Origin: an uncultured Gammaproteobacteria bacterium
GTDB taxonomy: Bacteria > Patescibacteriota > Patescibacteriia > Magasanikbacterales > UBA922
Length of the DNA: 64,000 nucleotides
Assembly (NCBI GenBank): GCA_964522405.1
Contig: CAZFTR010000001.1
Span: forward strand, 4,602 to 68,601
Direction: 5' to 3'
Position 1 is the stretch's first letter. Every line of letters starts with the position of its first letter. Made by a program: the position numbers and the translations under genes. Below the pieces are notes generated by a model. That model saw only the letters and a list, made by a program, of their open reading frames with translations, was not told where the DNA came from and did no database searches. Shown here piece by piece: positions 10,401 to 63,542 of this stretch.

Positions 10401-10401
10401 A
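1414..10401 (+). CDS. giant (2995 aa) cell-surface protein with an N-terminal signal/TM, six or more LamG (concanavalin-A-like, Laminin_G_3) repeats, several fibronectin-III-like domains, Pro-rich and Thr-rich linkers, and a C-terminal TM anchor
   Basis: Recurrent LamG motifs (L[KR][LI]Y[IV]NG..D) run with ALSFDGVDD...W.K and DE..IY.RALS..EI blocks at about aa 255, 520, 740, 975, 1380 and 1625. FN3-like SWTD/VGWQD segments lie at about aa 1850-2300. Linkers are PATPPPALPPPPEPPKPG and TATTTPATTTTTPEDGEGGG. The C-terminal hydrophobic helix IIVTILIVLLILMV is followed by RRLFKGIRKMKK. Confidence 0.8.
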   Translation: MNRLEKKTKPFLHISAFLTAAAFVVAFAFLFSDLHAVTKTWDFDSASDYTFDADYLKITDGKAGFVTFDQTDDDNTQTGFGGGTHTGTGWSASNNSLGIVTGTVALYWKFDEVSGNLVTDSSGSGMNGGLNQSDGFDNNWVLGKFANAFEFASSTSESFVAPTFNTKPNSELYTSDIFSVALWVRLDELVDNNFIDLFHRISGGISRLYMRVQPTHKISWSIWDGSPNWSGLVGNTTIEIDNWYYVVGTYDGENLKLYINGELDGSMANSNGIEQFDGNRIAGIATITGGPYGATQHLDGIVDDVQYYSRALSTEEILHNYINRPPAQQGIFESRVMNNYAASYWWSLAWNPKAPYGKELPDNPRMGLLMHFDEASGSTDFIDSSSGGNLISCSGTSCPLTGIASQLSTGAYFDGVDDKLVFSNSPTYNADEIKDFSFSTWVKSDLSQNGFHVIASGGLSDNSGWSVYTYKTASGAENVYFEIARPGYTTQYKIRGVSTQDDRFVFIGGTYDASTDELIIYKNGSGIVGYDSAGALTQAPGDVFEIGQRALHSGFSDFPFRGVIDEFTIYNKKLSDQEMRNLFVAQRQGAAMLDDNAPDRALVLHMNEAGGSSAFKDKSSYNNSASCSGNTCPVAGVEGQVGTALKFDGVDDYVEISGSSLEISDKLTMGLWVKPETSGSHKQLISKNPAPGSVSSYYLSLTALKPCVWLGQNMVGWKCSISAVPLNEWSYVAAVFDGRSLRIYINGVLDKTYSGLSGVIPTNPGTSVWLGNRPDLSGYMYKGGMDEITIFSKALSAEKILNIYNEQKIGKLGLENIASDRSLETAQYSASGANMTDNELLLHFNEASYSGTVDEVVDKSGNENHGLVVGGGDTVAYGKLNRAASFDGVDDSVTIADNNTLDTKESDLSIEAWIKPENVSQAGYIVTKRLNESPWTQWGVGIFDGSTNYGSGKKLVCTFGLTSGSGSYFHDVVTVDDILDGDWHHVVCRVDYGNNIEVFVDGVKVDTNIIRDQSWTSLENDEPITVGSGNGAFYYKGLIDEVAVYSRALLDEEVLDRYKRGAVRVKYQIRSCNDSACDGETYMGPDGTASTYYSELQNSFYSTPAIGLASVPNNTYFQYKAIFETENASYLPEISSVTAGPDHQSIGTFELMPAKASAVSFANIDSFTDQDVGLITGINDPVPYYQITNQGDQEMPSWYFWNGSSWAQTFNPDDSNTESEINTNISQFSTDIGTGKFLWKAFLKVIEAAKSLKLFQVEVDYNAPPTANVLETKGSAVYFDGENDYITIPDSEGFNFAGKTASVAFWFKVPNIEIINHMIDRQEGGYPGAGWYIGIRPNGRLHINHRATDDTINLYSTALVNDNQWHFGVITIDSADNLATMYVDGVLNSTDTFEGLIDKNDSFFIGTTGGGNSSYYFKGSVDEIAFYNYSLTQEEIDLYYNSGNGRRGLASDNGLISGWNFDEGAGDTAKDYGINANNGELYNGATWVPGKISETTNMYGPYPYFSSIFNDTKDSYKSALSFDGGGGYVELGKKLDEENITVLAWIKLDEHNYFNYITSNSRDCCAKYDGDELKVNEGGRLSGRIWNNDPAISDWNLVNAKLVSNQVLALDTWYQVAFTYDGSTMALYVNGELDNTKASTLGIGQPSSFNRTIGAMAMSPHNYNFRGDLDEVSIYDRALTAEEIATHYNGGNGRYGLATDSGLIGGWHFYEGAGNAVQDYSPYGNHGTIKNSLEWTTGVVNDHDYANKARIQVSTDPNFENITHWDSGVEGTTLPNFVVASERSKDIKYGSLGNGPIIDSFSMADGDITYYWRIKYWDHHGAEGIWSATSSFTMLDAPVAPGSVSAARVSDNEFTVGWQDLSTTEDKFVLERDYTLGAGGFMGWQKLTDLAPNITNYTDSSTEVDSKYKYRVKAVNQAGESIYTEDPIEHFTSPKAPTSVSSTYDGENAFTVSFTDTSAISNIHDVERCDDQICDNNIYMAVSGSPVSTSTFQDAGLATNARYRWRVRASLDPTSELTSEYAYSNYEFSKPLAPSNFASEFVSDNQINLSWTDDVQYESGFTIYVSEDGSEYTPITIGNSTTTVSQNTTNYSYADSSTNHSYSFKAKSYIDATASNSELFSDDSDMTEVIYTSPVAPTMLAAVPLNSSNIQWNFTDNSNYEFGYKLFTDGGGEILNSENANLGSIVESGLSPNTEYSRYVTTYNNSGSASSAVTSTYTISATPSNGRSIFTSQTAITVAWDANGNPDGTEYYIVNSNTGANSGWVTKQEFEFSDFKCGNSYTFEIKSRNALSLESNNHSLSIKTDNCYGGGSPATPPPALPPPPEPPKPGDFSLVINEGELITNNLTVVLAIDGGEDAIMMAISEDEGFFDTSQIPYSEAYAFPLSEENGTKVVYIKFFTEDGTESPVISSEIILDTEAPEIIDLEIEDEFEFDQNVIVKGTSEAGANIIPTLNSSQKTAIEIDQDGNWEIDFGILDSGEYILELVTRDGAGNEGDTYLVAFVVNEEPIEEESQPPSGTATTTPATTTTTPEDGEGGGLPDLIDEVTDVIEDVQDAVDETYEDIKEIVKEIIPLPGPQTGGESIIPTVTTQSGSELLGDGLLSFGSIGLPKTFTNLVTSFPTLEKTFRDFGVRNIADLHRLQGVTLALPTIDELVPADSLAKSALVLDTLEGYTIDDLRDAAEKLPTDVVFFELNNGKIALAPVVNGASFSGEGPTFRTIPNQAVSMIIRPSEPVETITSQVALRELRTRQVAEAQKKTTIQSVIDAFGETVSAVQVNEVSAAEIKDQDLESTPQDEKGRFIVDQVDFEDSNDDGVYVADINTPEVFGSFDIITDVDYSTQKKDNIITNTMLIDPEGYVFHQTISGEVRLANAKVSLYHFSEESSEFELWDAEKYGQVNPQITDDSGTYAFLVPEGQYYISALASTYKPYQSRGFTVQSSGRGVHINIGLQKYFDVEQFLNIDYIIVTILIVLLILMVRRLFKGIRKMKKYDDYN

Positions 10402-10826: not shown

Positions 10827-10900
10827 TTTTCTAAAAAAATTATAAACAGTCGCATTTCAAATGTGACTTTTTTGCTTTTAAAAACTATTACTTAAAAATT

Positions 10901-10972
10901 GCTTCGCCGTCCTCGCCTCTCTTGCTAATCTGCTTTCAGCATTAGCAAGGAGTCTGCGGATTGTCTCATCAA
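10901..10972 (+). repeat. copy 1 of a ~70-nt conserved intergenic element (candidate structured-RNA motif). The other copies are at 36644-36712 and 62304-62372
   Basis: Conserved 5' flank gcttcgccgtcctcgcc, a hairpin with stem CTTGCTAAT/ATTAGCAAG and constant loop CTGCTTTCAGC, and conserved 3' flank ctgcggattgtctcatc. Confidence 0.6.
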
Positions 10973-11039
10973 TCTTTAAGTAATACTTTTTAAAAGCAAA
11001 AATAAACTATATCTTGACCCAGCACCATAAGCCAGAGGG

Positions 11040-11068
11040 TTGACAAAGTCACTTTTTTGTGGTATAAT
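11040..11068 (+). promoter_or_regulatory. sigma-70-like promoter, TTGACA-17nt-TGgTATAAT
   Basis: Perfect -35 TTGACA, 17-nt spacer, and a TG-extended TATAAT -10. It lies about 190 nt upstream of the 11260 gene. Confidence 0.6.
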
Positions 11069-14925: not shown

Positions 14926-16287
14926 TTATTCTGTCTCAATAACAATCATTTGTTCAAGTCTACGAATATCTGCCAGAAGTTCAGATCGATCTTTGTTGAA
15001 CATGATAATATTGAATACACTGCTTCCGCCATGTTTGGCATAAAGACAGGAGTCTCCAATTTTTTTGTTTACGTAAATTCTTTTGAAGGATTTGAGATCT
15101 TGAGCTTTTTTGATACCAGTCATTTTTGAGAGTTTTCCTTCTTTTTGGGCAAAGAATTTCATAGCAACTGTATACCCCTTTACTTTTTTTAGAATTTCAG
15201 GTTTTTTAGGTAATTTAATCAACACATCATTCATGGTGTGGTTTATTCCATAAGAAAATTCATACATCATATGTCGAAAACCACCAACTCGAGGATTAAC
15301 TTCAATTATTTTCCAACCTTCTTCTGTTTTGAGTAGTTCGATGTGCGCGGTTGTGCTGCGAAGCGCAAGCGCATATATAGATTCTGCGGCAACTAACTTT
15401 GCTGTGTCTGCATTTGCTTCGTTTAATAGTGTTGGAGTTATTTGTCTATAGCCGAAGAAATCATCAAATCCAATACTTTTTCCAGGCTTAACATGAACTA
15501 TTGGACAAAAATAAATTTTACCTTTTGGATCAACATATGCATCGATAGAATACATCTCACCTTCCATAAATTTTTCAACCAGCACTTTCGGCTCACCTTT
15601 TCCACCATTCTCTTTGTAAACAGCTTCAATTTTTTTAAAAACTTTTTTCAGGACCTCTTCAAGTTCTTCTCTGTGATAGCAAATAGAAACAAGTCTGCTG
15701 GCAGCAAGGCCAGAAGGTTTGACTATGAGGGGATAGCCCACTTTTTCTTCTACTTCTTTTATAGTTTGCTTTGATAGTTTTTTAACTATGGTAAAAGGAG
15801 GGGTAATCTCAGGATCATGTGCAAAGAGTCTTTCTCGAGAAGCGATTTTGTCGCTGGACCATCTGAGAGATCTAACTGTAGGATTATTTACAAAAGGAAC
15901 ATGAGGAATTAATTTTTTTAGGAGAGGAAGTTCATCTTCTGATCTGGTTGTTAAAACTAAAATCTCATCTTGATAGGGTTTTAATGCTTGTTGAATCGCT
16001 ATTTCAGAAGAAGTGTCGCAGCTAAGTTTAAGGTCAAGCCTATCAATTGCATTTTTAGTAAATTCATCTAATTTTGTTTTGGAATCATAGATAAGTCCAA
16101 TGCGAAATTTTCTTTTTTCTTTTTTCTCGTATGCTTTTATGGCATCAATCATGTGTCCATAAATTTTACCAACATAGAGAATCAGATCTTTTTCTTTTTT
16201 ATTTTTTTCATCTTCGTTTGTGCGAATAACTTGATGATAAAGTTTTCCAACCAACTGTGTAATATTTTTTTCTATCCTTGAAGGCAT
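14926..16287 (-). CDS. ATP-grasp domain protein
   Basis: The C-terminal half (...EGEMYSIDAYVD...HIELLKTEEGWKIIEVNPRVGG) matches the ATP-grasp fold. The N-terminal ~180 aa are unassigned. Confidence 0.6.
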   Translation of the reverse strand: MPSRIEKNITQLVGKLYHQVIRTNEDEKNKKEKDLILYVGKIYGHMIDAIKAYEKKEKRKFRIGLIYDSKTKLDEFTKNAIDRLDLKLSCDTSSEIAIQQALKPYQDEILVLTTRSEDELPLLKKLIPHVPFVNNPTVRSLRWSSDKIASRERLFAHDPEITPPFTIVKKLSKQTIKEVEEKVGYPLIVKPSGLAASRLVSICYHREELEEVLKKVFKKIEAVYKENGGKGEPKVLVEKFMEGEMYSIDAYVDPKGKIYFCPIVHVKPGKSIGFDDFFGYRQITPTLLNEANADTAKLVAAESIYALALRSTTAHIELLKTEEGWKIIEVNPRVGGFRHMMYEFSYGINHTMNDVLIKLPKKPEILKKVKGYTVAMKFFAQKEGKLSKMTGIKKAQDLKSFKRIYVNKKIGDSCLYAKHGGSSVFNIIMFNKDRSELLADIRRLEQMIVIETE

Positions 16288-17703: not shown

Positions 17704-19329
17704 TCAATCCAATATGCCATCTGGGAGTTGTTTTTTTATAGAATTTTTATTTTTTAACAAGTATAAAGTATTATTTGGGTTCCAACCTTTGATTTTTTCT
17801 TGCTCAATAACGTCAAATCCTTCGATCGGAGAAAAACTCAGAGCATAATCAGAAGTATTATTCACAAAAACATGACGTATCCACCACGGGCTACCAACCG
17901 GACCATGGGTTTTGTCTGATTCCTGAGCCGACCAGTAAGATTGGAATCCATTCCATTCATATCCAGCATCAATATGGTAAGTTTCCAGATCTGATTTAAA
18001 TAAAATATTTTCAGCCATATTCCATCTGGTTTTGTTCCAATTCATATAAAATGAAGTTTGACTAATGCTAAATATGGCAAAAATTAATAAACAAGTTCCA
18101 ATGGCAATTTTCGATATTTCTTTTTCTTGTAATTTTGCAACTAAAAGGATTGAAATCACAAAGAAAATTGGTAGAAAATATCGATCAAAACTTACAAATA
18201 GTAGAATTGGAATTAAAAATAAAATTCCAAAGAGATATACAAAATTTAACTCCTGTTTTTTTTCAGTTTTGTTTCTTAAAATCATGTAAATCAACCATCC
18301 GGCACTGGCAGCAGATATAATGGTGATAATTCCCAGAATTTTACTCGGAATAAGAGATGTGAATTCACCTCGCAGAACTCCCTGCATCGGTCCAAGTCCA
18401 TTTAGATTTATGATATTTGCTACATAGGGAAATTGCAGTAGTTTAATTTGTCTTATTAGGATCGCAATTATAATTGGGATAAGGGTGGTAGCCAAAAGCA
18501 ATTTGTCTTTGATTTTATTCAAATTTTTAATTCCCCAAGAAATAGAAAAAGGTAAAACAAAAAAACCAATATAAACAAAACTATACCAGAGCCACCAGAG
18601 CCCATTTATCAGAGTTTTTTTCAATCCAGGAATTTCATGGAGAGTAAAAGTATCTGGCAGAAAACCATTTTTCCATAAAAACCAATAAATTAGACAACCG
18701 AGAATTGCTGGGATGCCATAACTCCATAATAGGTTTTTGAATTTGATGTTTTTTAATTGTGTTAGAGAATAAATTCCGGCTGCAATCATGGCAACAATAT
18801 TTGTTTGTCGTGTATATGTTCCAAGAACCACGACAAGTCCAGCAAATAGTAACCAAATCGCTTTTTTGCTTACAAATCCTCTGTAGTACAGGTAAACAGA
18901 TAAGACAATGAAGAAGAGCCCGGGAATATCTGTCATAAAAGTAAAAGACAGATTATAGAAAATTGGATTTAGCCAGATTATTAGCGCAGCAAATAAGGCG
19001 AGTTTTTGTTTTTTGGTTATTTCAGCAATTAATTGATATGTAAGTAGAAGTGTTGCAAGAGACAGTACTAAAGTTGAAATACGTAGAGCAGAAAAAGAAA
19101 AAGTAAAAATTTTAGAAATGCCAACTCCAATAAGAATTGGCACATAAAAAGTCGGTCCGGCAAATGGATTCATGCGAAATTCACCAGTATTTACCCAGTG
19201 TTTGATAATTTCAGAGTGAACCCAGTCATCGTTCAGTGCAAATTCTCCGATTGGTGAAATAAAAACAAATTGGAGTAGAAAAAGTCCAATTATGATTAGT
19301 TGATATTTGTATTTTTTTAGGAAGTGCAT
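17704..19329 (-). CDS. polytopic membrane protein with a C-terminal soluble domain, possibly an ArnT/PMT-like glycosyltransferase
   Basis: Ten or more hydrophobic helices. The true start is taken as MHFLKKYK at 19329; the tracked ORF's first 66 codons read through the GC-rich repeat and look spurious. The family assignment is tentative. Confidence 0.5.
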   Translation of the reverse strand: MHFLKKYKYQLIIIGLFLLQFVFISPIGEFALNDDWVHSEIIKHWVNTGEFRMNPFAGPTFYVPILIGVGISKIFTFSFSALRISTLVLSLATLLLTYQLIAEITKKQKLALFAALIIWLNPIFYNLSFTFMTDIPGLFFIVLSVYLYYRGFVSKKAIWLLFAGLVVVLGTYTRQTNIVAMIAAGIYSLTQLKNIKFKNLLWSYGIPAILGCLIYWFLWKNGFLPDTFTLHEIPGLKKTLINGLWWLWYSFVYIGFFVLPFSISWGIKNLNKIKDKLLLATTLIPIIIAILIRQIKLLQFPYVANIINLNGLGPMQGVLRGEFTSLIPSKILGIITIISAASAGWLIYMILRNKTEKKQELNFVYLFGILFLIPILLFVSFDRYFLPIFFVISILLVAKLQEKEISKIAIGTCLLIFAIFSISQTSFYMNWNKTRWNMAENILFKSDLETYHIDAGYEWNGFQSYWSAQESDKTHGPVGSPWWIRHVFVNNTSDYALSFSPIEGFDVIEQEKIKGWNPNNTLYLLKNKNSIKKQLPDGILD

Positions 19330-19520: not shown

Positions 19521-20209
19521 CCACCACCTTTGTTGTCTCTGCGGTTGGCGATGTGACCTGACAACGCCAGAGGCCAGACGATCCAGGCGATGAGAGCCGG
19601 GAAGCTCAGAACTTCCTCCCTCGGCATGGGGTTCCGCCTCGACTTTTCCATGCCCAGGTCTTTGGCGATGTAGATCAGGGCGAAAATGCCCAAGAACAGG
19701 TATCCGGCCAGGATACTGAGAGCAATCAAATCACTGGTGCTCAAAACCTTTCCTCCTTTCGCGGTTTTGCAATGTTGATTATAACAGTAAATAATTTTTT
19801 TTTCTATGGTTGGTTTCCAAATAAAAACCCTCCTTTTTAAGGGGGTAATAATGGTTAAAATAGTTCCCTTTCGCCGCCCATTCCACGTTCGCCGACAAGG
19901 GACTAAGAACAGGCGGCGCGCGAGCACCAGCCAGGCGCGTGTTGATTTACCAGTCTCCTTTTTTTTCTTCTTTTCGTCTCTGATCTCGATCAGGTAGCCG
20001 GCCAACATGAAGGGGCCTGCCATCAGCCCGAAGAGCCAGATCATGACACCGAATTTACTGGTGTCGGTGGGATTTCTTTCTTCTTCGCCCTTGCCGTGGT
20101 CACCGGTGACGTACAAGAGGGCGCCGAAGCTGAGGATGGCGTAGCCCCCGACCAGGCTGAGAATCATCAGGGCAGTGCTCAAAGTTCTCTCCTTGTTGCG
20201 ATTTTGCAA
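19514..20209 (-). CDS. GC-rich tandem pair of paralogous small two-TM membrane protein ORFs (A ~19955-20194, B ~19514-19754), fused in one frame through an A8 tract
   Basis: The halves LSTALMILSLVGGYAILSFGALLYVTG... and LSTSDLIALSILAGYLFLGIFALIYIA... are clearly homologous. Each is preceded by a conserved leader, atcaaYattgcaaaaYcgc, then AAGGAG, then TTG. Half B stops at the TAA inside the 79-nt repeat (cTGGTAAatc). Half A is out of frame by one base within an A8 run (19959-19966) and reads through. Confidence 0.4.
   Translation of the reverse strand: MQNRNKERTLSTALMILSLVGGYAILSFGALLYVTGDHGKGEEERNPTDTSKFGVMIWLFGLMAGPFMLAGYLIEIRDEKKKKKETGKSTRAWLVLARRLFLVPCRRTWNGRRKGTILTIITPLKRRVFIWKPTIEKKIIYCYNQHCKTAKGGKVLSTSDLIALSILAGYLFLGIFALIYIAKDLGMEKSRRNPMPREEVLSFPALIAWIVWPLALSGHIANRRDNKGGGW
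19875..19953. repeat. GC-rich 79-nt perfect direct repeat, copy 2
   Basis: Exact 79/79 match to 19442-19520. It is followed on the minus strand by a terminator-like hairpin, ccccctTAAAAaggaggg plus a T-run (19822-19846). Confidence 0.9.
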
Positions 20210-22456: not shown

Positions 22457-22591
22457 AATATATTGTTTATATTTAACTAGAAAAAATACTGTGATTATAT
22501 TGTAGCATAGAGATAGTTTGTGATAAAGGGAGTTTATGATTAGGTGAAATTGTGTTATAGTTTAACCAATATCGACTACATGGGGAGATGT

Positions 22592-22756
22592 ATGGTTTCC
22601 AGGTTGGGAAAGGAGCCGGTGGTGCTGGTCAAGGTTGTCTGGGGCGGGCTCAGCCCGGAGGATATTGCGGTTTACCGTCAAATCGCTAGGGACACAGTGG
22701 AGCGTTCCAAGCAAAATCGCTGCCATGGATGCGGCAGACCAAAGAAGGGGGAATGA
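22592..22756 (+). CDS. GC-rich small ORF (54 aa), possibly the product of a ~260-nt GC-rich transcript; could instead be a non-coding RNA
   Basis: A TG-extended -10 (tgtTATAGT) near 22545-22556, SD GGGGAGA 5 nt before ATG 22592, and an intrinsic terminator at 22795-22822. The protein MVSRLGKEPVVLVKVVWGGLSPEDIAVYRQIARDTVERSKQNRCHGCGRPKKGE has no recognised family. Confidence 0.35.
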   Translation: MVSRLGKEPVVLVKVVWGGLSPEDIAVYRQIARDTVERSKQNRCHGCGRPKKGE

Positions 22757-22794
22757 TGGGGGGCGCCACTCCATCTCGGATTGGCAAACTCGAA

Positions 22795-22822
22795 AAAACA
22801 TGAGAGAATCATGTTTTTTTGA
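22795..22822 (+). terminator. intrinsic terminator
   Basis: aaaaaaCATGAgagaaTCATGttttttt. Confidence 0.65.
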
Positions 22823-22843
22823 TATTAAATTTATCAAAACAAA

Positions 22844-22868
22844 AAAACAGCTTTTGCTGTTTTTCAGT
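22844..22868. terminator. bidirectional intrinsic terminator, likely ending the convergent minus-strand GC-rich gene
   Basis: aaaaaaacAGCttttGCTgttttt. Confidence 0.55.
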
Positions 22869-22959
22869 ACTTCCTAAAAATTCAAAAAAAATACTAAGGA
22901 AGGGGTGGGGCGGAAGGAATCACGGCGGGAGTCGCTGCGATCATCGCCCCGAGGGGGGA

Positions 22960-23631
22960 CTAGGCATCGATGGCCTCGAAGATCTGGGATCTGGGGCGGT
23001 CGGGGAGGGCGCGGGGCATGGCGTCGAGGGTCGTCATGTCCGCGTACCAGGCCTGCATGTAGCCGGTGGGACGGTGTTGGTCAGCGCTCGGCGCCGAGGC
23101 CTGGGCTCGGCTCTGGAGCAGGACGGCATTGAGCCGTTCCGGGTCGTTCTGGAACATCCAGAGCAGGAACTTCATCTGAAGCGCCTCCTCCTGGCTCATC
23201 TGGGGGATCTGGCCCGGACTGACCTTGGAGATCCGCTGACCCATGGTACGGAACAGGCCGTCGGCAGCCCTCAGCGCGGCCAGACGGTGCATCATGTTCT
23301 GGTTGTCCGGTTCCACCACTTGACTGCTCTCTTCGAGCGAAGCCCGCACCTTTTCCGGAATCTCTTCGCCGGCGGTTTCGTTGCCAGTGAAGATCAGGCG
23401 GTAGCGTGTCCGTTGACCCACGGGGATCTCGAGAATCAGTGCCAGCGGCGGGTTTTGGGCGATGGTGTACTCCAGGTAACACTCGATCATGTTTTCCGGA
23501 TCCTTGACTCCGGAGTCAGGGGGCTTGCTGTCTTCGTACGACTTCATGGCATTGTGCCAGTGCCAGAGAGTCAAGAAGAAGCCCAGGATCAGGACTGTGA
23601 TGAGGAGAGTCAGGAGGGTGAGAGAGTCCAT
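22960..23631 (-). CDS. GC-rich hypothetical protein with an N-terminal TM anchor (224 aa)
   Basis: Start MDSLTLLTLLITVLILGFFLTLW is preceded by AAGGAGG. Amino-acid composition is protein-like, whereas the overlapping plus-strand ORFs are G/R/L-rich antisense artefacts. About 58% GC. Confidence 0.55.
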   Translation of the reverse strand: MDSLTLLTLLITVLILGFFLTLWHWHNAMKSYEDSKPPDSGVKDPENMIECYLEYTIAQNPPLALILEIPVGQRTRYRLIFTGNETAGEEIPEKVRASLEESSQVVEPDNQNMMHRLAALRAADGLFRTMGQRISKVSPGQIPQMSQEEALQMKFLLWMFQNDPERLNAVLLQSRAQASAPSADQHRPTGYMQAWYADMTTLDAMPRALPDRPRSQIFEAIDA

Positions 23632-23759
23632 ATCGTGCCTCCTTGAGGCTTCCGGTTCTAGTCTGTTCAGTATTGTTGTCTTTTTTTGATAAAAAGTCAA
23701 GTCTGGAGTTTAGATTGACAAAACAACAATTTTGTCCTAATATGGGTATACAATTATAA

Positions 23760-23935
23760 AAGCGCAATACTCGCTATCAACGAGGATTCTGAGTCTCAGA
23801 AGCGCTGAAAGAAGAAAAACTTATATAAAGTTTAGTAGAATTTTCCGGGTAAGCCCGTAATAGCAGAAATTAAGAGCCACTTTGGAAGTGAGATGGTACC
23901 GCCCGATATTGGGTTCTCATGTGAGTGGTTTTTTA
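23760..23935 (+). promoter_or_regulatory. candidate T-box riboswitch leader of ileS
   Basis: A ~180-nt structured leader contains GAGAUGGUACCGCCCG, which resembles the T-box core (UGGUACCGC, 23895-23903), then a hairpin plus U-run near 23905-23934. ileS is the classic T-box-regulated gene. An Ile codon candidate (ATC, 23776-23778) sits in a loop context. Confidence 0.5.
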
Positions 23936-24083
23936 TTTATTATTAGTAAATTTGTTTAACCGTATTTATTATAAAATTCAACTCAGCTCTACAGAAATAA
24001 TTTGATATTCAGTTTAAATTGATCGCTCAACGTTTCATTTTATAATAAATACGGTTAAATTAACTCAAGCTATTAATTCATGT

Positions 24084-27053
24084 ATGCCTTACGAATCAAA
24101 TAAACATGAACTTGAAATAAAAAAGTTCTGGGACAACAACAAAATTTTTGAAAAATCTATAAATGAGCGTCCGGAAGATCAGCCCTATGTTTTTTATGAT
24201 GGTCCACCATTTGCAACCGGCTTGCCACATTATGGACATATAGTTGCCAGTTTGATGAAAGATGTTGTTCCCAGATATTGGACTATGCAAGGAAAGCGGG
24301 TTGAGCGTCTTTGGGGTTGGGATTGTCATGGTTTGCCGATTGAAAATATTGTTGAAAAAGAAATTGGATCAAAAAGTAAACAAGATATTGAAGAAATGGG
24401 AGTTGAAAAATTCAATGAGTCCTGTCGCTCAAAAGTTTTACATTATATAGATGAATGGAAAAGGACTATTCAAAGACTTGGACGCTGGGTTGATATGGAC
24501 AATGCCTACAAAACCATGGACAAAGATTATATGGAGTCAGTTTGGTGGGTTTTCAAAGAGCTTTGGGACAATGGTTTTGTTTATAAAGGATATAAATCAA
24601 TGCATGTTTGTCCACGTTGTGAGACAACACTTTCTCAGCAAGAAGTAAGTGAAGGTTACAAAGACATAAAAGATCTTTCCGCAACTGTAAAGTTTAAAAT
24701 TACCTCTACAATTTCAGATATTCATCAAGACCTGGGTGTGTGTAATGATCTCTTTGTTCTAGCTTGGACAACTACCCCTTGGACACTTCCTGGAAATGCC
24801 CTTTTGGCAGTTGGTGAGGATATTGAATATACAGTTGTTAAATTTGAAGGCTCTTGTTATGTGGTTGCCAAAGAAAGATTAATTGAAGTTTTTGATGAAA
24901 GAGAATTTGAAGTTGTTCAGCAATTAAAAGGAAAAGACCTGTTAGGTTTGGAATATGAGCCATTGTTTCCATATTATACTGATACAGAAAATGCTTTTAA
25001 GGTTGTGGCAGGAGATTTTGTAAGCACAGAAGAAGGAACAGGCGTGGTGCATATAGCTCCGGCTTTTGGTGAGGATGATTATCAAACAGGAAAAAAAGAA
25101 AAAACCGGCTGGGTCCAGCATGTTTCAATGAATGGAAAATTTAAGCCGGAAGTTGCAGATTTTGCAGGTCAGCAAGTTAAGCCAATAGAAGATCCTCAAA
25201 AAACAGATATAGAAATAATTAAATGGCTTGCTCACAATGAAAAGTTATTTTCAAAGAAAAAATATCTACATAGTTATCCGCATTGTTGGAGATGTGACAC
25301 CCCTCTAATAAATTACGCAACAGATTCCTGGTTCGTAAATGTAGAAAAATTAAAAAAGGACGCGCTTAAACATGCCAAAGAAATAAATTGGTCTCCAGAA
25401 CATATGAAAGAGGGGCGTTTTGGGAAGTGGCTAGAAGGAGCACGAGATTGGTCAATTTCTCGCCAGCGTTTTTGGGCATCAGTAATTCCAATTTGGGAAT
25501 GTGATAAGACAGGTGAATTTCATGTTATCGGTTCTGTAGAAGAACTTGAGAAATTAACCGGAGAAAAAATAGAAGACCTACATAAGCATACAGTAGATAA
25601 ACTAACTTGGAAAAATCAAAAAACAGGAGGAACTATGAAACGAATTCCAGATGTTCTTGATTGTTGGTTTGAAGCAGGTTCAATGCCTTACGCCCAAGTT
25701 CATTATCCATTTGCCAATCAAGAAAAATTTGAAGCAAGTTTTCCAGCAGAATTTATTGCCGAAGGACAAGATCAAACACGAGCCTGGTTTTATTATCTGC
25801 ATATTATTGCAACAGGTGTAAAACAAAAACATGCATTTAACAATGTGGTGGTAAATGGAATAGTTCTAGCAGAAGACGGAAAGAAGATGAGTAAGAAATT
25901 ACAAAATTATCCAGACCCAATGGTTGTGCTGGAGAAATACGGAGCAGATGCGCTTAGATACTACTTGGTGAGTTCACCGGTGATGCAAGCAGAAACTTTG
26001 AATTTTTCAGAAGAAGGTGTTCGAGAAGTTTTTAATAAGGTTGTCAATACACTTTGGAATGTAGGTAGTTTTTATGAGATGTTTGCAGATGAAAATTCAA
26101 AGTTCGATTTAGAATTGGCAAAGAATTCAAAAAATGTTTTGGATAAATGGATACTTGCCAAACTACATAGATTGCTTGAAGAAGTTACAAAAGAAATGAA
26201 TGAATACAGACTTAATGATGCATCTCGCCCAATTTTAGATTTTATATTAGATCTTTCACAGTGGTATGTGCGCAGATCAAGAGATAGATTTAAAGGTGAT
26301 GATGAAGAAGATAAAAAAGCAGCACTTGCTACGCTCCATGAAGTTCTTTTAACTCTTTCAAAAATCATGGCACCGTTTACTCCGTTTATTGCAGAGAAGA
26401 TTTATAAAGAAGTTGGTGGTGAGAAAGAATCTGTTCATTTGGATATGTGGCCAGAGGTGGATCAAAATATTTTGCTAGCAAACACGAATCTCTTAGTGGA
26501 TATGGAATCAGTCAGAGAAGTAGTTAAGCTTGGAAATTCTCTTAGAAAAGAAAACTCATTGAAAGTTAGACAGCCGCTTGCAAGTTTAAAAGCAGTTGCT
26601 ACTCTCTCAGGAGATAAAGATTATCTTGAGCAATATCAAAAAATTATTTCAGAAGAATTAAATATTAAGAAAGTTGAGTTAAGAAATTTACCTGGAAATA
26701 AAGAAATGGAAGAGATGAGAAGTTTGGCAAATGATAAAATTAAAGTTGCCGAAGATCAAAGATCTATCGTAGTCCTTAACACAGAAATAACCCCACAACT
26801 CGCCAAAGAAGGACTTCTCCGCGAAACAATCCGCGCCATAAATCAAATCAGAAAACAACAAGGCTTGATAATGCATGACCAAGTTCTTGTAGAATTTTCA
26901 ACAGAAGATAAAGTATTAAATGAAATCTTTACAAAAGCAGAATTTGCAGAAGAATTAAAAAAACAAACACTCACAAGTGAAATCAAATCAGGTGGAACTG
27001 AAGAAATAGAAATAGATAAAAGAAAAATTAAGATAATTGTGAAAAAAGCGTAA
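24084..27053 (+). CDS. ileS: isoleucine--tRNA ligase
   Basis: HIGH motif PHYGHI, KMSKS motif KMSKKL, WSISRQRFWAS and the Zn-binding CPRCE segment. 989 aa. Confidence 0.9.
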   Translation: MPYESNKHELEIKKFWDNNKIFEKSINERPEDQPYVFYDGPPFATGLPHYGHIVASLMKDVVPRYWTMQGKRVERLWGWDCHGLPIENIVEKEIGSKSKQDIEEMGVEKFNESCRSKVLHYIDEWKRTIQRLGRWVDMDNAYKTMDKDYMESVWWVFKELWDNGFVYKGYKSMHVCPRCETTLSQQEVSEGYKDIKDLSATVKFKITSTISDIHQDLGVCNDLFVLAWTTTPWTLPGNALLAVGEDIEYTVVKFEGSCYVVAKERLIEVFDEREFEVVQQLKGKDLLGLEYEPLFPYYTDTENAFKVVAGDFVSTEEGTGVVHIAPAFGEDDYQTGKKEKTGWVQHVSMNGKFKPEVADFAGQQVKPIEDPQKTDIEIIKWLAHNEKLFSKKKYLHSYPHCWRCDTPLINYATDSWFVNVEKLKKDALKHAKEINWSPEHMKEGRFGKWLEGARDWSISRQRFWASVIPIWECDKTGEFHVIGSVEELEKLTGEKIEDLHKHTVDKLTWKNQKTGGTMKRIPDVLDCWFEAGSMPYAQVHYPFANQEKFEASFPAEFIAEGQDQTRAWFYYLHIIATGVKQKHAFNNVVVNGIVLAEDGKKMSKKLQNYPDPMVVLEKYGADALRYYLVSSPVMQAETLNFSEEGVREVFNKVVNTLWNVGSFYEMFADENSKFDLELAKNSKNVLDKWILAKLHRLLEEVTKEMNEYRLNDASRPILDFILDLSQWYVRRSRDRFKGDDEEDKKAALATLHEVLLTLSKIMAPFTPFIAEKIYKEVGGEKESVHLDMWPEVDQNILLANTNLLVDMESVREVVKLGNSLRKENSLKVRQPLASLKAVATLSGDKDYLEQYQKIISEELNIKKVELRNLPGNKEMEEMRSLANDKIKVAEDQRSIVVLNTEITPQLAKEGLLRETIRAINQIRKQQGLIMHDQVLVEFSTEDKVLNEIFTKAEFAEELKKQTLTSEIKSGGTEEIEIDKRKIKIIVKKA

Positions 27054-27149
27054 TAAAAAAGTTTCCCCTCCTTTTTAAGTAGGGGCTATGCCACGTCAGT
27101 CGCGACTGACGTGGTTAGGGGGTGGTTTACTCTACACTTCTAACAAATA

Positions 27150-27176
27150 AAAAACACCCGAATCGGGTGTTTTTTA
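27150..27176 (+). terminator. intrinsic terminator after ileS
   Basis: aaaaaaCACCCGaatCGGGTGtttttt. Confidence 0.8.
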
Positions 27177-27679
27177 AATGGTGGTTTTTATGATCGCGCC
27201 ACACCGGAATTCACAATAGTTTATAAAATCCGGTGTGGCGGCGCGATCAAGTGTCTGTTCACGAGGTTGTTGTCCCTCGTTTACCAGAATCAATCCACCA
27301 CCTCTCCCTTATTTACTACTAACGCTCTTCTGGCGCTTTCGTTTTATTCTCGATAGGGAGCTGTTCTAATCGCGTTGCACGATCAGTCTAACGGGTACAG
27401 CCATGAACGGCTTCACGAACAGGCTGTTCGTATCGATCCAAACTGTTCCTGCATTGCACAGAAAACGACTGGTTTCGCGCTTTTTTGTGTGCGCGTGCTT
27501 CAGTCTCAGAATGATCGGAGTGGGTTCTTGCCGGGGTAGGTGCTACAGTCAATATATCTTGCCTTGGAATGAAGTCGAACCGGGCTTCAATCTTTGGTTT
27601 GATACTCGTGTAGAGCCTTATTCAGTCGTTCGGGTGACTGTCACACGTAGTAGGATCAGATCCTCTACGGTGCTGGTAG

Positions 27680-28141
27680 CTATCGCTTGCCGTACTTTTT
27701 ACGCAGGCTGCGACGCTCGATTTCGCGCTCCAGGAGATCCACCGCTTTTTTGGCTTCCTTGAGCCACCAGTGGCGGATGTCATGGATGTTGCCTTCTTTC
27801 AGGCACTTCCAGAGGAGCCAGAGCCAGTACTGGGTACCGTCTTCTTCGCCGTAGATCAGCGTTTCGAACGGTTCGGGGAGGTTGAAGCCCCCGTCCTTGT
27901 GCTCGGTCATCTCGAATCCCTTGTCGCCATTCTCAACTGCTGCGGCGACCAGGTCGACGAGTCTGTCCTCTCTGCGGTAGAGCTGTCTCTCCTCGCGCAT
28001 GACAGCGAGGAAATCAGTCCAGTCCTCCATGTACGCGGGGACGTAACTGAGGAACTGCTCACTCATCTCACCCACCCAGTGCTCGTGCCTATCAGCAACG
28101 AATTCCGTGTAGGAGAGATCCAAAAACTCTCTTCTATCCAT
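27680..28141 (-). CDS. GC-rich hypothetical protein (153 aa)
   Basis: Protein-like, Trp-rich acidic sequence. SD GGAG lies 7 nt before the ATG, and the 5' leader has a GC hairpin CCCCGGC-acggg-GCCGGGG at 28162-28180. About 57% GC. Confidence 0.55.
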   Translation of the reverse strand: MDRREFLDLSYTEFVADRHEHWVGEMSEQFLSYVPAYMEDWTDFLAVMREERQLYRREDRLVDLVAAAVENGDKGFEMTEHKDGGFNLPEPFETLIYGEEDGTQYWLWLLWKCLKEGNIHDIRHWWLKEAKKAVDLLEREIERRSLRKKYGKR

Positions 28142-28569
28142 CTAACACTCCGAAGCTACTGCCCCGGCCCCGTGCCGGGGAGCTCCGAGATCTCTCTCGG
28201 TTATATCTAGCAAATTTTGCAAAATATAATCGAGAGAGATTTTTGAGTTTTAAATGTCAGCTTTCAAATTATACAAACGAATTATATAATTTGGAACTGT
28301 CCCGAGGCTGAAGCTTCGGGTGAGTTTCTGGCGCTGTTGCGACCTGAGTCGCGAGGCGCAGTTGGTCTTGCTCTTAGAGTGTTGGGGGAGCTGATTGACC
28401 CTACCCCTTCTACTGATTTCGAACTTGTCGCACAGCCGGTTTTCTGGCTCTCTACCTACTCAATTGCCAACTCGTGGCATCCACATCTAGATTTCCCCGA
28501 AAGTTCAGAGAAACTCTCGGTCCACAGGAGCGGAGTTAAATCCGCATCTTCATCGATTAGAAATCGATG

Positions 28570-28872
28570 CTACTTGCTTCCCTCCTGGTGTTTCACCAGA
28601 CGTCGATGGACTTTCTCATCGGCGTAGTCCAGCTCGAGTCGGAGCATCGCGTCCTCGAAGGAGCTCAGCGCTTTCTCGACGCTGTCCGGCGTCGTCGTCT
28701 CGGTGGTGGTGATCGACTGGGAGATCGGATCGGCCCATGCATGGAGGATGCGCGTGGCACGTTTTCCGTACTTGTGGCGCGCGCCTTCGGGCATGTTGCG
28801 CATGACAGAGGTCAGTCGGTTCTCGAGCGCCTCGAGACGGACCTGGAAAAGATATTGCTCGCTTTTCTTCAT
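28570..28872 (-). CDS. GC-rich hypothetical protein (~100 aa; start ATG 28872 chosen by analogy to its paralogous leader, alternative GTG at 28893)
   Basis: A leader paralogous to the 153-aa gene: hairpin CCCTGGt-aaagg-GCCAGGG, then gcagtRgcttYggag, then 7-9 nt, then ATG. Confidence 0.45.
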   Translation of the reverse strand: MKKSEQYLFQVRLEALENRLTSVMRNMPEGARHKYGKRATRILHAWADPISQSITTTETTTPDSVEKALSSFEDAMLRLELDYADEKVHRRLVKHQEGSK

Positions 28873-29111
28873 CTTTCTTTTCTCCAAAGCCACTGCCCTG
28901 GCCCTTTACCAGGGAGCCCAAGAGATTTCCCTTGGTTAAGCGAAAAAAGCAGATAACCGCTTAAATTAGGCAAAAGCCTAAATTTTCGCTAAATCAAGGG
29001 AAATTTCAGTGAATTGTCAATAACGGCTAACAATTAATTATAGCAGGTTTTGACGGTTTTGTCAATGAGTGGTAAAATTAGATAACGACTTCAAAAATTA
29101 ACTAAAAAATT

Positions 29112-36582: not shown

Positions 36583-36643
36583 ATATGTTTTTATATTTAT
36601 TTCTTCTTTGGTTATAATTTTAGAGTATATTTTATTAAACTAG

Positions 36644-36712
36644 CTTCGCCGTCCTCGCCTCTCTTGTTGATTTGCTTTCAGCATCAACAAGGTGGCTGTG
36701 GATTGTCTCATC
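36644..36712 (+). repeat. copy 2 of the ~70-nt conserved intergenic element
   Basis: gcttcgccgtcctcgcctct-CTTGTTGAT-ttgctttcagc-ATCAACAAG-gtggctgtggattgtctcatc. The stem carries compensatory changes relative to copy 1. Confidence 0.6.
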
Positions 36713-36805
36713 TACTTTAATAAAATATACTCTAAAATTATAACAACTGATTTCAATAAAAAGGGATCTTATTAGAATCATCCCGCCTATATTGTAGTTT
36801 GTAAA

Positions 36806-61385: not shown

Positions 61386-61883
61386 TTACGGATTGTTATT
61401 TAGAAGTCCTTCTATATGTTTTTTTTCTGCTGCTAATAATTTGAGTTCTACTCTATATTCATCGTACTCTTGGTCTAGCTCAGCTTTTTTATCAGTATTT
61501 GTTTGTGCGGTTCTTTCTTGGTCTATTTTTGTTTGTTTTTCTTCCATTTCTGCTATGCGTTCTTCAAATTCAGCAAGCTGTTTCCCGAGTTCTTCTGTGC
61601 ATATTGTTGGATTGCCAGTATTGATATCACAATAAAGATTTCTACGATCTTTTCTTAATTCTCGCCAGTAGCTGTGCATTCTTGATTTGTTATTTCTAAC
61701 TTCCTCTGGCTTTTTCTGCCTAAAAGGATTTCTGTCGTGCAATTTTCTCTCTATCCTTTTTCCTAGATTTGGTCTTTTCCCAATTTCTAAGGCTTTGCCG
61801 GCTGTAAATTGTTTTCTTGATGCTTCAGACATATTAAAACATTCCTGTGCTTCCATATTTTCCATCTCCTCTTGAGCTATCAT
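61386..61883 (-). CDS. hypothetical coiled-coil protein
   Basis: 165 aa, charged. Its end overlaps the dut start by 50 nt. Confidence 0.4.
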   Translation of the reverse strand: MIAQEEMENMEAQECFNMSEASRKQFTAGKALEIGKRPNLGKRIERKLHDRNPFRQKKPEEVRNNKSRMHSYWRELRKDRRNLYCDINTGNPTICTEELGKQLAEFEERIAEMEEKQTKIDQERTAQTNTDKKAELDQEYDEYRVELKLLAAEKKHIEGLLNNNP

Positions 61884-62259
61884 TTAATGTTTCGACTTCT
61901 TCTAGCTCAGCTATCGCGACTGGAAATATTATTAATTGGGCAATTTTCTGCCCTTTTTTTATTTCTACCGGTTTTTTTGTAAAATTTGTTAATATTACAT
62001 TATATTCTCCTCGATAGCCTGCATCATATACTCCTCCTGATGTTTTCATGCCTGACTTTGCCATTCCGCTTTTATCTTTTACTATGGCTGCATAACCCTC
62101 TTCAAATTCTAGTGCAAAGCCACAACCGAACACTTCTCTTTCTCCTGGTTCAATAACTGTATCTTTTTCTATTGAATACATGTCCAGCCCCACATCTCCA
62201 GGATGAGCATAATTCGGTAGTTTTGTGTCTGGATGTAATTTTTTTATTTTAATTTTCAT
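61834..62259 (-). CDS. dut: dUTP diphosphatase (dUTPase/dCTP-deaminase fold)
   Basis: Motifs PGDVGLDMYS and GVYDAGYRGE. 141 aa. Confidence 0.75.
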   Translation of the reverse strand: MKIKIKKLHPDTKLPNYAHPGDVGLDMYSIEKDTVIEPGEREVFGCGFALEFEEGYAAIVKDKSGMAKSGMKTSGGVYDAGYRGEYNVILTNFTKKPVEIKKGQKIAQLIIFPVAIAELEEVETLNDSSRGDGKYGSTGMF

Positions 62260-62303
62260 ATGTTGTTTTGACTTTTTGCGTTTGATTTTTTCTCTAAATC
62301 CTC

Positions 62304-62372
62304 CTTCGCCGTCCTCGGTTCTATTGTTGATCTGCTTTCAGCATCAACAATGTGCCTGCGGATTGTCTCATG
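62304..62372 (+). repeat. copy 3 of the ~70-nt conserved intergenic element
   Basis: ttcgccgtcctcggttct-ATTGTTGAT-ctgctttcagc-ATCAACAAT-gtgcctgcggattgtctcatg. The stem is again kept by compensatory changes. TGACTTTTTGC lies upstream, as in copy 1. Confidence 0.6.
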
Positions 62373-62476
62373 ATTTTTTAGAGAAAAAATCAATATAATT
62401 CATAAATTTATTCTACTACACATTTCAGAGATCAAATATAGATCTTTCAGCTATCTCCGAAGATGGATGCCCTGCG

Positions 62477-63064
62477 TTACGAGTTGTTGGCTTTATATTT
62501 GCCAATTATTTTTTCAATTTTTGCATAAAATTCTTCAAAGTCTCCAGTATTTTCTATAATATGATCTGCAATCTTAAATGATTCTCTAATTTTCCTTTCT
62601 GTCTCCTGATTGCATTCTTTTTGAAATTGTTCAAATGTCTTGTTTTGATCATCTGGATTTTCTGAACGCTGAGTTAGTCTCTCATATCTTGTTTTTTCAT
62701 CAAGATCAATGGCGATCAATATAAAGCCTGGAATTTCTTTGAGATATTCAACATCTGTTGGTCTTCTGATTCCTTCTGTAATGATAATTTTTGCGTCAGA
62801 TAGTTCTACGTCTTTGGCAAGTACTTTTGACATAATATCTTCACCATAGGTTCCTCGAAGAAATGTAGAAAGTGACTGCATATTGGTTCGGTTTTTTTCT
62901 ACATGAACTCTATCAAGTATATCACGAAGCATATCTGAAAAACGGAACGAAATCGCTCCGTATTTTTGTTTTATATAATCTGATGCTGTGGTTTTTCCTG
63001 ATGCAATTTCACCGGTTATTCCAATTATTAGTTTTTCCATATTATTTTTTTCTTTCAAAATCAC
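62477..63064 (-). CDS. P-loop nucleotide kinase (dephospho-CoA-kinase-like / dNMP-kinase-like)
   Basis: Walker A IGITGEIASGKTT. Sits in the thymidylate cluster and overlaps the dCMP deaminase gene by 23 nt. Confidence 0.55.
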   Translation of the reverse strand: MILKEKNNMEKLIIGITGEIASGKTTASDYIKQKYGAISFRFSDMLRDILDRVHVEKNRTNMQSLSTFLRGTYGEDIMSKVLAKDVELSDAKIIITEGIRRPTDVEYLKEIPGFILIAIDLDEKTRYERLTQRSENPDDQNKTFEQFQKECNQETERKIRESFKIADHIIENTGDFEEFYAKIEKIIGKYKANNS

Positions 63065-63542
63065 AACTATATTGTCGGTATTTTATTCCAGCTGCATCCA
63101 TAAGTCTTTTGGCTGCTATAAAAGCAGGTTGGCCGTCATACTTGTTGCTTTCGTATATTACTTCTTTTATTCCATTTTGGATTAAGGCCTTGGTGCATTC
63201 GTTGCAAGGAAAAAGTGTGCTGTATATTTTGCAATTAGTGGTGTCATTGTTGGAATTATAAACTGCGTTTTCCTCGGCATGACAGACATAAGCATATTTG
63301 GTATCTTGGTACTCTCCTTCACGCTCCCAAGGAAATTCTTCTTCACTAATTCCTCTTGGAAAGCCATTGTATCCTAGCCCAACCACGACATTGTTTTGGT
63401 CAGCTATTACTGCTCCAACTTGGCTGGAAGGGTCTTTGGAGCGCTCTGCAATGACATGGGCCATGCGCATAAAGCATTCATCCCAGGAGATATAGTTTTC
63501 ACGATATTTTATAGTCATAGTAGTAAAATTATAGCAGACCAT
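63042..63542 (-). CDS. dCMP deaminase (cytidine/deoxycytidylate deaminase family)
   Basis: Zn-binding motifs CHAEENAV and PCNECTKAL. Confidence 0.85.
   Translation of the reverse strand: MVCYNFTTMTIKYRENYISWDECFMRMAHVIAERSKDPSSQVGAVIADQNNVVVGLGYNGFPRGISEEEFPWEREGEYQDTKYAYVCHAEENAVYNSNNDTTNCKIYSTLFPCNECTKALIQNGIKEVIYESNKYDGQPAFIAAKRLMDAAGIKYRQYSCDFERKK

Follow-up and report, generated by a model that had tools for sequence, protein, structure and literature searches.

CPR genomes are tiny, tightly packed and thought to be poor in repeats. What, then, is a repeated, GC-rich and seemingly folded sequence doing in the spacer between two genes of a thymidylate-metabolism operon in such a genome, and with which class of element does it belong? 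We address this question for a 64,000-nt stretch of DNA (hereafter, the window) from a low-GC bacterium, the GyrA of which groups with Candidatus Magasanikbacteria (Patescibacteria/CPR), its nearest non-identical counterpart among 5.8 billion proteins being only 83–84% identical. A sequence-only reading of this DNA had described the stretch at 62304–62372 as the third copy of an element of about 70 nt, preceded by a promoter-like sequence and followed by a run of six T residues on the plus strand.

The gene setting of copy 3

The sequence is indeed present at that position. The conserved, GC-rich core of copy 3 spans 62304–62371 (68 nt), is 85% identical to copy 1 over these 68 nt, and scores 104.5 bits with R1, a covariance model that we built from the three window cores. 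It lies within the 217-nt spacer between dut, encoding dUTPase (61834–62259, minus strand; an ORF with the Pfam dUTPase match in the gene calls of identical contigs), which is downstream of it on the minus strand, and a P-loop (d)NMP-kinase-like gene (62477–63064, minus strand; Pfam AAA_17/AAA_18, with weak CoaE and DNMK matches), which is upstream. The coordinates also agree with the claimed distance to the dut start, as the left edge of the core is 45 nt from the ATG; the whole element ends 22 nt before this start codon, in sense orientation. Every gene surrounding copy 3 is encoded on the minus strand, in the order dCMP deaminase (63042–63542), P-loop (d)NMP-kinase-like gene, dut, a 165-aa ORF, thyA, folA and tmk, and the cluster was thus rightly assigned to thymidylate metabolism. 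The 165-aa ORF between dut and thyA (61386–61883) has no Pfam match and shares 50 nt with the 3′ end of dut; in relatives, the dut–thyA interval holds nothing (L101) or only a 54-aa ORF (L099).

Copy 3 is unchanged in all four public assemblies of the source species. The right arm of copy 3 is bracketed by the ends of two SRR8146441 contigs of the same species (the start of L006 and the end of L089), near window positions 62375 and 62408, and no inverted core was seen; these ends probably represent an assembly break at the AT-rich stem. An invertible promoter was considered but is not supported, the contig breaks near the arm being one-sided in one sample and the core-spanning contigs of the species all having one orientation.

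Three conserved cores with a covarying inner hairpin

The window contains exactly three cores, at 10902–10969 (copy 1), 36644–36711 (copy 2) and 62304–62371 (copy 3), which score 104–107 bits with R1, the next match in the window reaching 14 bits with filters off. All in one orientation, the three 68-nt cores are 85–88% identical to each other, which bears out the description of copy 3 as a member of a repeated family, and a repeat finder returned the same single family in a single orientation (10876–10995, 36618–36737 and 62278–62397). Two invariant blocks, TTCGCCGTCCTCG.. and G.G.CTG.GGATTGTCTC, occur three times each, compared to 0.00–0.01 occurrences expected by chance.

When read on the minus strand, the core of copy 3 consists of ATGAGACAATCCGCAGGCAC, a stem-loop and AGAACCGAGGACGGCGAAG. 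Its inner hairpin (62323–62351) comprises a 9-bp stem (62323–62331 pairing with 62343–62351) and an 11-nt loop (62332–62342), the latter reading CTGCTTTCAGC on the plus and GCTGAAAGCAG on the minus strand and being identical among the copies except for one base in copy 2. The inner stem exists in three versions, CTTGCTAAT/ATTAGCAAG, CTTGTTGAT/ATCAACAAG and, in copy 3, ATTGTTGAT/ATCAACAAT. The last is 100% complementary, and 3 of the 12 inner-stem pairs are altered on both sides among the three copies, in agreement with the earlier claim that the stem variant keeps its pairing. On both sides of the hairpin, the core flanks of 19–20 nt are almost invariant and face each other with many non-Watson–Crick contacts.

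Taken alone, the core forms an irregular hairpin. The plus-strand version, with several extra G.U pairs, folds at −21 to −24 kcal/mol (z-scores −3.1 to −3.7), compared to −17 to −22 kcal/mol for the minus strand, in which, as read from the sequence, tandem G.A pairs are possible at the base of the core and one G.U pair is found in the copy 1 arm. The cores also differ from the arms that enclose them in GC content (47–51% versus 15–18% overall; about 47% versus 18% in copy 3).

Long, locus-private stems carry the cores at their tips

The cores are enclosed by outer inverted repeats. In copy 1, the whole element extends from 10869 to 11002, with 33-nt arms (10869–10901 and 10970–11002) that are 94% complementary and flank the core at 10902–10969; copy 2 (36611–36744) is built alike, its 33-nt arms (36611–36643 and 36712–36744) being 97% complementary around the core at 36644–36711. 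The arms of copy 3 are shorter: the left arm (62282–62298; TTGATTTTTTCTCTAAA) is 17 nt long and 100% complementary to the right arm (62377–62393; TTTAGAGAAAAAATCAA), and the two form the base of a 112-nt hairpin in the whole-element fold. At the arm–core junction, positions 62299–62303 face 62372–62376 with two further pairs and a 3x3 internal loop. The minus strand reads GGAGG at 62299–62303, 40 nt before the dut ATG, in copy 3 only. The pair adjoining the core (alignment columns 33/102) is G–C in copies 1 and 2 and C–G in copy 3. Because the outer inverted repeats enclose the cores, the units amount to 134, 134 and 112 nt in copies 1, 2 and 3, respectively. The size of about 70 nt given earlier thus holds for the 68-nt core, while the unit at this locus, with its outer inverted repeat, is about 112 nt.

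Between copies, the similarity of the arms does not exceed that of shuffled sequence (p = 0.68, 0.04 and 1.0 for the 5′ arms). Within copies, pairing is well maintained: in the whole-element alignment, 90.8% of the cells are paired compared to 43–51% when the partners are slid, 19 of the 48 pairs are altered on both sides compared to 0–5 in the slid controls, and none of 500 shuffles matches the observed pairing values. Each core is located at the apex of a long AT-rich stem with locus-private sequence, and, by these substitution patterns, the element is a structured nucleic acid in which pairing is conserved beyond the controls.

Promoter, terminator and peptide readings

The arms bear directly on the promoter-like sequence and the T run, which together implied a small plus-strand transcription unit composed of a promoter, a hairpin and a T-run, possibly an antisense RNA against the dut leader. 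TTGACT does occur upstream of copy 3 (62268–62273), T6 does occur downstream of it, and the fold z-scores of the plus-strand core mentioned above would suit such a transcript. However, a sigma-70-type promoter requires two hexamers with an adequate match, 16–18 nt apart, and TTGACT is separated from the poorly matching TCTAAA (62293–62298) by 19 nt rather than by the 17 nt stated earlier, so that our scan of 62100–62600 scored 0 promoter-like sites; it also gave 0 terminator-like sites. TCTAAA is part of the left outer arm. The T6 run lies at 62374–62379, about one base past the core, and is in this sense correctly described, but half of it belongs to the right outer arm, which begins inside it. 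Since TCTAAA and T6 belong to the opposing arms of the outer repeat, the one mirrors the other on either strand, and, moreover, no T-run follows the cores of copies 1 and 2. We therefore consider a plus-strand transcription unit highly improbable.

An intrinsic terminator on the sense strand was rejected as well. Such a terminator consists of a G+C-rich stem followed directly by a U-run on the transcribed strand, and what follows the copy 3 hairpin on the sense (minus) strand is the A-rich ACGCAAAAAG, with T6 on the other strand; because the hairpin is succeeded by an A-rich stretch instead of a U-run, the anatomy of an intrinsic terminator is lacking. The long stem may still affect kinase-to-dut readthrough or mRNA processing.

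Nor does the element seem to encode a peptide. The candidates (a peptide starting with MRQSA, or the 45-aa ORF at 62256–62393) were discarded because a ribosome-binding site is lacking, the stops vary between copies and the stem substitutions are compensatory. No ORF is consistent in the three copies, the frames being interrupted or devoid of start codons, and a profile joining four frames found none of the ORFs that would be spuriously translated from the core among 5.8 billion proteins. A by-eye comparison with hammerhead, HDV-like, twister, K-turn, SRP and group II domain V structures was likewise negative, as their defining positions are not conserved, and a putative second, decayed core just after the kinase stop, sharing GCTGAAAG, was not significant (p = 0.07).

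The copies are insertions specific to this lineage

The three copies occupy dissimilar settings. Copy 2 ends 28 nt upstream of the gyrA ATG (36582) in sense orientation. Copy 1 is antisense to both of its neighbours, with no downstream gene in its own orientation, and lies between a plus-strand terminator-like hairpin (10848–10868) and a 12/12 promoter match (11040–11068). It adjoins a 9-kb single ORF (1414–10401; 2,995 aa) with repeated Laminin-G/LamG-like 'YxDG..D' segments, which were also seen as the direct-repeat families D8 and D16.

Relatives share both the operon order around kinase–dut and the upstream neighbour of gyrA. Their kinase–dut spacer measures 32 nt (L099, Dut 74% identical) and 54 nt (L101), compared to 217 nt here, and their hyp–gyrA spacer measures 16 nt (L096, GyrA 84% identical) and about 40 nt (L008), compared to 223 nt here. 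These shorter spacers indicate that the copies are lineage-specific insertions. In the gyrA regions of 80 relatives (1.4 Mb in total), neither R1 nor a fuzzy two-motif scan recovered the core, and the exact two-block pattern was found neither in 185,579 species genomes nor in viral contigs. Three metagenome matches to this pattern were dismissed as chance occurrences inside GC-rich coding DNA, and BLAST searches against phages and plasmids returned chance fragments only.

Since copies 2 and 3 closely precede gyrA and dut, respectively, and are sense-oriented, and since the core is both conserved and structured, one may think of a cis-regulatory leader (an attenuator or a riboswitch) for the DNA-precursor and topology genes dut–thyA–folA–tmk and gyrA. 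We give this explanation very little credence, given that relatives run the same operons without the element, copy 1 has no gene to lead in its orientation, and we saw neither a terminator/antiterminator alternative nor a U-tract on the sense strand. The absence of the element from the copy 3 site in relatives and the position of copy 1 together argue against a dedicated regulator of the thymidylate genes. No Rfam family was recognized either: searches at copy 3 with E values up to 10 yielded chance-level snoRNA/lncRNA matches far below their gathering scores, and the entire window contained a single tRNA at the gathering threshold. To our knowledge, a closing stem of 17–33 bp is unlike that of known aptamers, which also counts against a leader.

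Analogous elements in other Magasanikbacteria

We searched the relatives for GC-rich centres enclosed by long inverted repeats. One of them, L019, carries three copies of a different GC-rich core, TGGTTGCC..GGCAACCA, then CCTCGGAGCCACAGCGAG, embedded in 30–33-nt arms and located after ileS (15197–15296), before ileS (18246–18348) and before trxB (19662–19767). About 24 nt of these arms, by the core, are common to the copies, and the outer 8–11 nt are private, yet still complementary. All three copies have one orientation, with flanking genes running both ways, and an Rfam search of these analogues returned nothing. Single examples of a core in a stem, with arms of 29–35 nt, were found in each of L011, L051, L059 and L042.

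The most informative case is an orthologous pair between ftsH and the gene for a Cys-rich protein (L056 5487–5601 and L066 2146–2261). The core is identical at 52 of 55 positions (95%) and the arms at 21 of 33 (64%), compared to 56–71% for the outer flanks and 82.5% for the ftsH DNA. Arm complementarity reaches 29/30 and 27/31 within the genomes and drops to 20–22/33 across them, and length changes are present in both arms. The arms therefore drift at about the rate of the flanks and yet stay paired, while the core is nearly fixed. That the core is conserved above the ftsH coding DNA fits a host function and a recent re-insertion equally well.

Sites of this kind may also carry hairpins lacking a core. 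In L101, an unrelated hairpin (16-bp stem) takes up the kinase–dut spacer, AT-rich hairpins of 29–30 bp (L038, L044 and L055) or 23 bp (L046) are found just upstream of gyrA, and the window itself has a long AT-rich hairpin without a GC-rich core (23951–24063; arms 23955–23982 and 24032–24059, 49 nt apart) that ends 21–24 nt before the ileS ATG. The hairpin before ileS is thus core-bearing in L019 and core-less in the window. Core-less hairpins at the same kinds of site suggest two components, a locus-specific stem and a core inserted at its apex. Nevertheless, core-bearing arms cluster at 30–35 nt, whereas most core-less hairpins have arms of 18–23 nt, and this gap implies that the simple version, namely insertion into any native hairpin, does not explain the lengths. 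Upstream of the IleRS gene (24084–27053), a T-box leader match is found at 23748–23921, below threshold (E 1.7e-6; 40.5 bits compared to a gathering score of 93).

Several of these observations are relevant to an explanation by host function, whereby the core would be a protein-binding small RNA or a signal for mRNA processing or stability, and the long perfect stem might present the core or allow it to be cut out; the RNase III processing stems of rRNA and phage T7 are the model for such stem-based excision. The invariance of the unpaired core positions, combined with covariation of the stems, would be expected of a module of this kind, as would a GC-rich core in an AT-rich genome, the possible tandem G.A pairs at the core base on the minus strand, and the end points of copies 2 and 3, 28 and 22 nt before start codons. 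Stems of about 30–35 bp recur across unrelated cores, and the conservation of the L056/L066 core above coding DNA points in the same direction. On the other hand, the element occurs neither at the same sites in relatives nor in the 1.4 Mb of related DNA, its orientation is not tied to transcription (copy 1 is flanked by a terminator and a promoter of the opposite strand, and the L019 family includes sense as well as antisense copies), no consistent promoter, terminator or Rfam match accompanies it, and the wobble evidence for the strand is split. Weighing these points, we find a structured RNA module serving the host a rather unlikely explanation.

Orientation and spacing of the copies

The orientation of the copies is independent of transcription, copy 1 being antisense and copies 2 and 3 sense. 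The three copies here, like the three in L019, form a set with one orientation whatever the gene direction, which may hint at a site acting at the DNA level, single-stranded or duplex, such as a recombination site, a priming or replication-associated hairpin on one template strand, or a site for a chromosome-organizing protein. Further points in its favour are the spacing of the copies, which lie 25,742 and 25,660 bp apart among housekeeping genes (window positions 10876, 36618 and 62278), the 9-bp inverted half-sites in the core, and the slightly better fold of the core on the plus strand, G-rich across the window. By a post-hoc estimate, for three points placed at random in 64 kb, the two adjacent gaps would differ by no more than 82 bp with a probability of about 0.004. 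Cores 1 and 2 also contain GCGAAGC, known as a very stable DNA mini-hairpin sequence (PMC13037366).

However, the spacings in the analogous L019 family, 3.0 and 1.4 kb, give no sign of a general period, and GC skew in the window mostly tracks gene direction and is not a guide to the replication strand. The concerted changes of the half-sites speak for pairing and not for recognition as a duplex, and the element is missing from relatives. The 11-bp gap between the half-sites is long for the core site of a tyrosine recombinase, which counts against a site of this type. Altogether, we judge a DNA-level site improbable.

Comparison with known hairpin repeats

Having weighed these alternatives, we lean towards a REP/MITE-like family specific to this lineage, with small dispersed repeats that are non-coding, form hairpins, are or were mobile and fold as a single strand, an assignment that we regard as probable, albeit with limited confidence. 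The comparison with classical MITEs is mixed. The copies are small, non-coding and dispersed (three, of 112–134 nt), as MITEs are, but they lack terminal inverted repeats common to all copies, since the arms differ. Direct target-site duplications are absent too: the flanks of the three copies, read directly, contain no direct repeat, which counts against a mobile element. No polymorphic empty site was found among the four public assemblies of the source species. No transposase or HUH enzyme was seen in the window, which argues against an element of the REP/MITE kind, and no RAYT gene was present among the scanned window ORFs. The sole recombinase seen in the window is an Xer-like tyrosine recombinase (219–1217, minus strand; Phage_integrase E 1e-44), the gene of which directly adjoins tRNA-Arg(TCT) (106–178).

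The closest parallels are REP/REPIN sequences with RAYT transposases, which resemble our element in their small size, lack of coding capacity, extragenic location and multiple copies, in their folding into single-stranded hairpins and in their vertical persistence within a lineage (PMC3116915, PMC3337134). The copies described here are extragenic and palindromic, with three in 64 kb, and relatives of the source genome carry clear REPIN-like inverted pairs (TGTCATTCCCGCGAAAGCGGGAATCCAG). However, a REPIN has two conserved inverted REP units as arms around a variable middle; here, the architecture is reversed, with a conserved middle and locus-private arms. In several Magasanikbacteria relatives, the REPIN-like pairs comprise two inverted TGTCATTCCCGCGAAAGCGGGAATCCAG copies around a variable spacer of 13–26 nt (L023 6020–6107; L048 12511–12586; L064 4228–4300; L078 13686–13771 and 14660–14734; L085 12512–12594) and are often located just downstream of gyrA. 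A further hairpin element, starting with AGTCATCCTGAGCGAAGTGAAGGATC, fills the carA–carB spacer of L101 (17845–17932; same in L102), and heads of a similar form, GTCATYCTGA...GCGA(A)G, are found again in L040 and L059.

Correia repeat-enclosed elements of Neisseria and the MITEs ERIC, YPAL and RUP resemble our element as intergenic insertions of 100–150 bp, with long inverted repeats around a core and co-transcription with neighbouring genes, and their hairpins can serve as substrates of RNase III and influence what becomes of the mRNA (PMC2649163, PMC2229807, PMC10969869). Correia elements differ in having terminal repeats that do not vary from copy to copy and that lie next to a TA duplication, whereas here the arms differ and no duplication is seen; in addition, no outward promoter is conserved among the window copies. 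Yeast mitochondrial GC clusters are also short GC-rich hairpins that are scattered in the AT-rich spacers of a compact genome, under constraint as hairpins and transcribed with their flanks (PMC4478555). Nevertheless, they belong to another domain of life, are unrelated in sequence, and do not lie inside long locus-specific inverted repeats. Our element differs from REP/REPIN, Correia elements and GC clusters in combining a conserved apex with private arms.

Integron attC sites are imperfect hairpins of 57–141 nt that act as folded single strands and conserve structure above sequence. The likeness to our element lies in the folded hairpin, in the conservation of structure rather than sequence, and in the uniform orientation. 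An attC site, however, conserves the R''/R' and L''/L' boxes at the base of the hairpin, varies its apex and occurs in cassette arrays, whereas here the apex is conserved, the hairpin base is the variable part, and the copies lie 25 kb apart among housekeeping genes, with neither a cassette array nor an integron integrase nearby. Mobile elements may also choose their targets by structure: IS1397 and ISKpn1 target the loops of REP sequences, and insertion after terminators is typical of class C group II introns. If the cores entered pre-existing hairpins, the target logic, structure rather than sequence, would be the same, although those elements are autonomous and protein-coding, whereas here we have a 68-nt non-coding core only.

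For a REP/MITE-like repeat, we envisage the following course of events. An enzyme with its gene elsewhere would recognize the folded single strand and copy the core into intergenic spacers, reading the loop and flanks by sequence and the stem by shape. Insertion would probably take place at or into pre-existing intergenic hairpins, a step suggested by the unrelated 'empty' hairpins that relatives carry at the same three kinds of site, and arm complementarity might thereafter be kept through compensatory or arm-templated change. The kinase–dut copy would be transcribed within the operon mRNA and fold into a long stem; because this stem lacks a U-tract, transcription would be expected to pass through copy 3, which may at most offer a target for a double-strand RNase or a stabilizing hairpin.

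A more far-reaching proposal, which we put forward tentatively and hold to be doubtful, is that the cores described here and those in other Magasanikbacteria constitute an undescribed class, either a non-coding element that places copies of itself specifically at the apex of intergenic hairpins in single-stranded DNA or a host-domesticated RNA module carried on a stem of about three helical turns (30–35 bp). Either way, the arms would owe their complementarity to arm templating and not to descent from a common repeat.

The presence of structured insertions inside essential operons, before dut–thyA–folA–tmk and before gyrA, means that CPR genomes tolerate dispersed palindromic elements, which they may also exploit. 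The reversed architecture and, in one orthologous pair, a core conserved above coding DNA provide a tractable case for studying how hairpin repeats spread, how the pairing of their arms is kept up, and whether they shape mRNA processing in organisms not yet grown. For annotation, the core should not be labelled a promoter–terminator unit or a riboswitch.

Other features of the window

Two further parts of the window have an unusual composition. The GC-rich, ORF-poor segment at 22460–23750 was considered as a large RNA, a possibility set aside upon finding a protein-level homolog in L016. The segment at 27050–29110 is GC-richer (41–43%), its ORFs are unannotatable, with no Pfam match, and it may be foreign DNA; it contains inverted repeats at 28183–28247 (32-nt arms, 1 nt apart) and 28922–29007 (25-nt arms).
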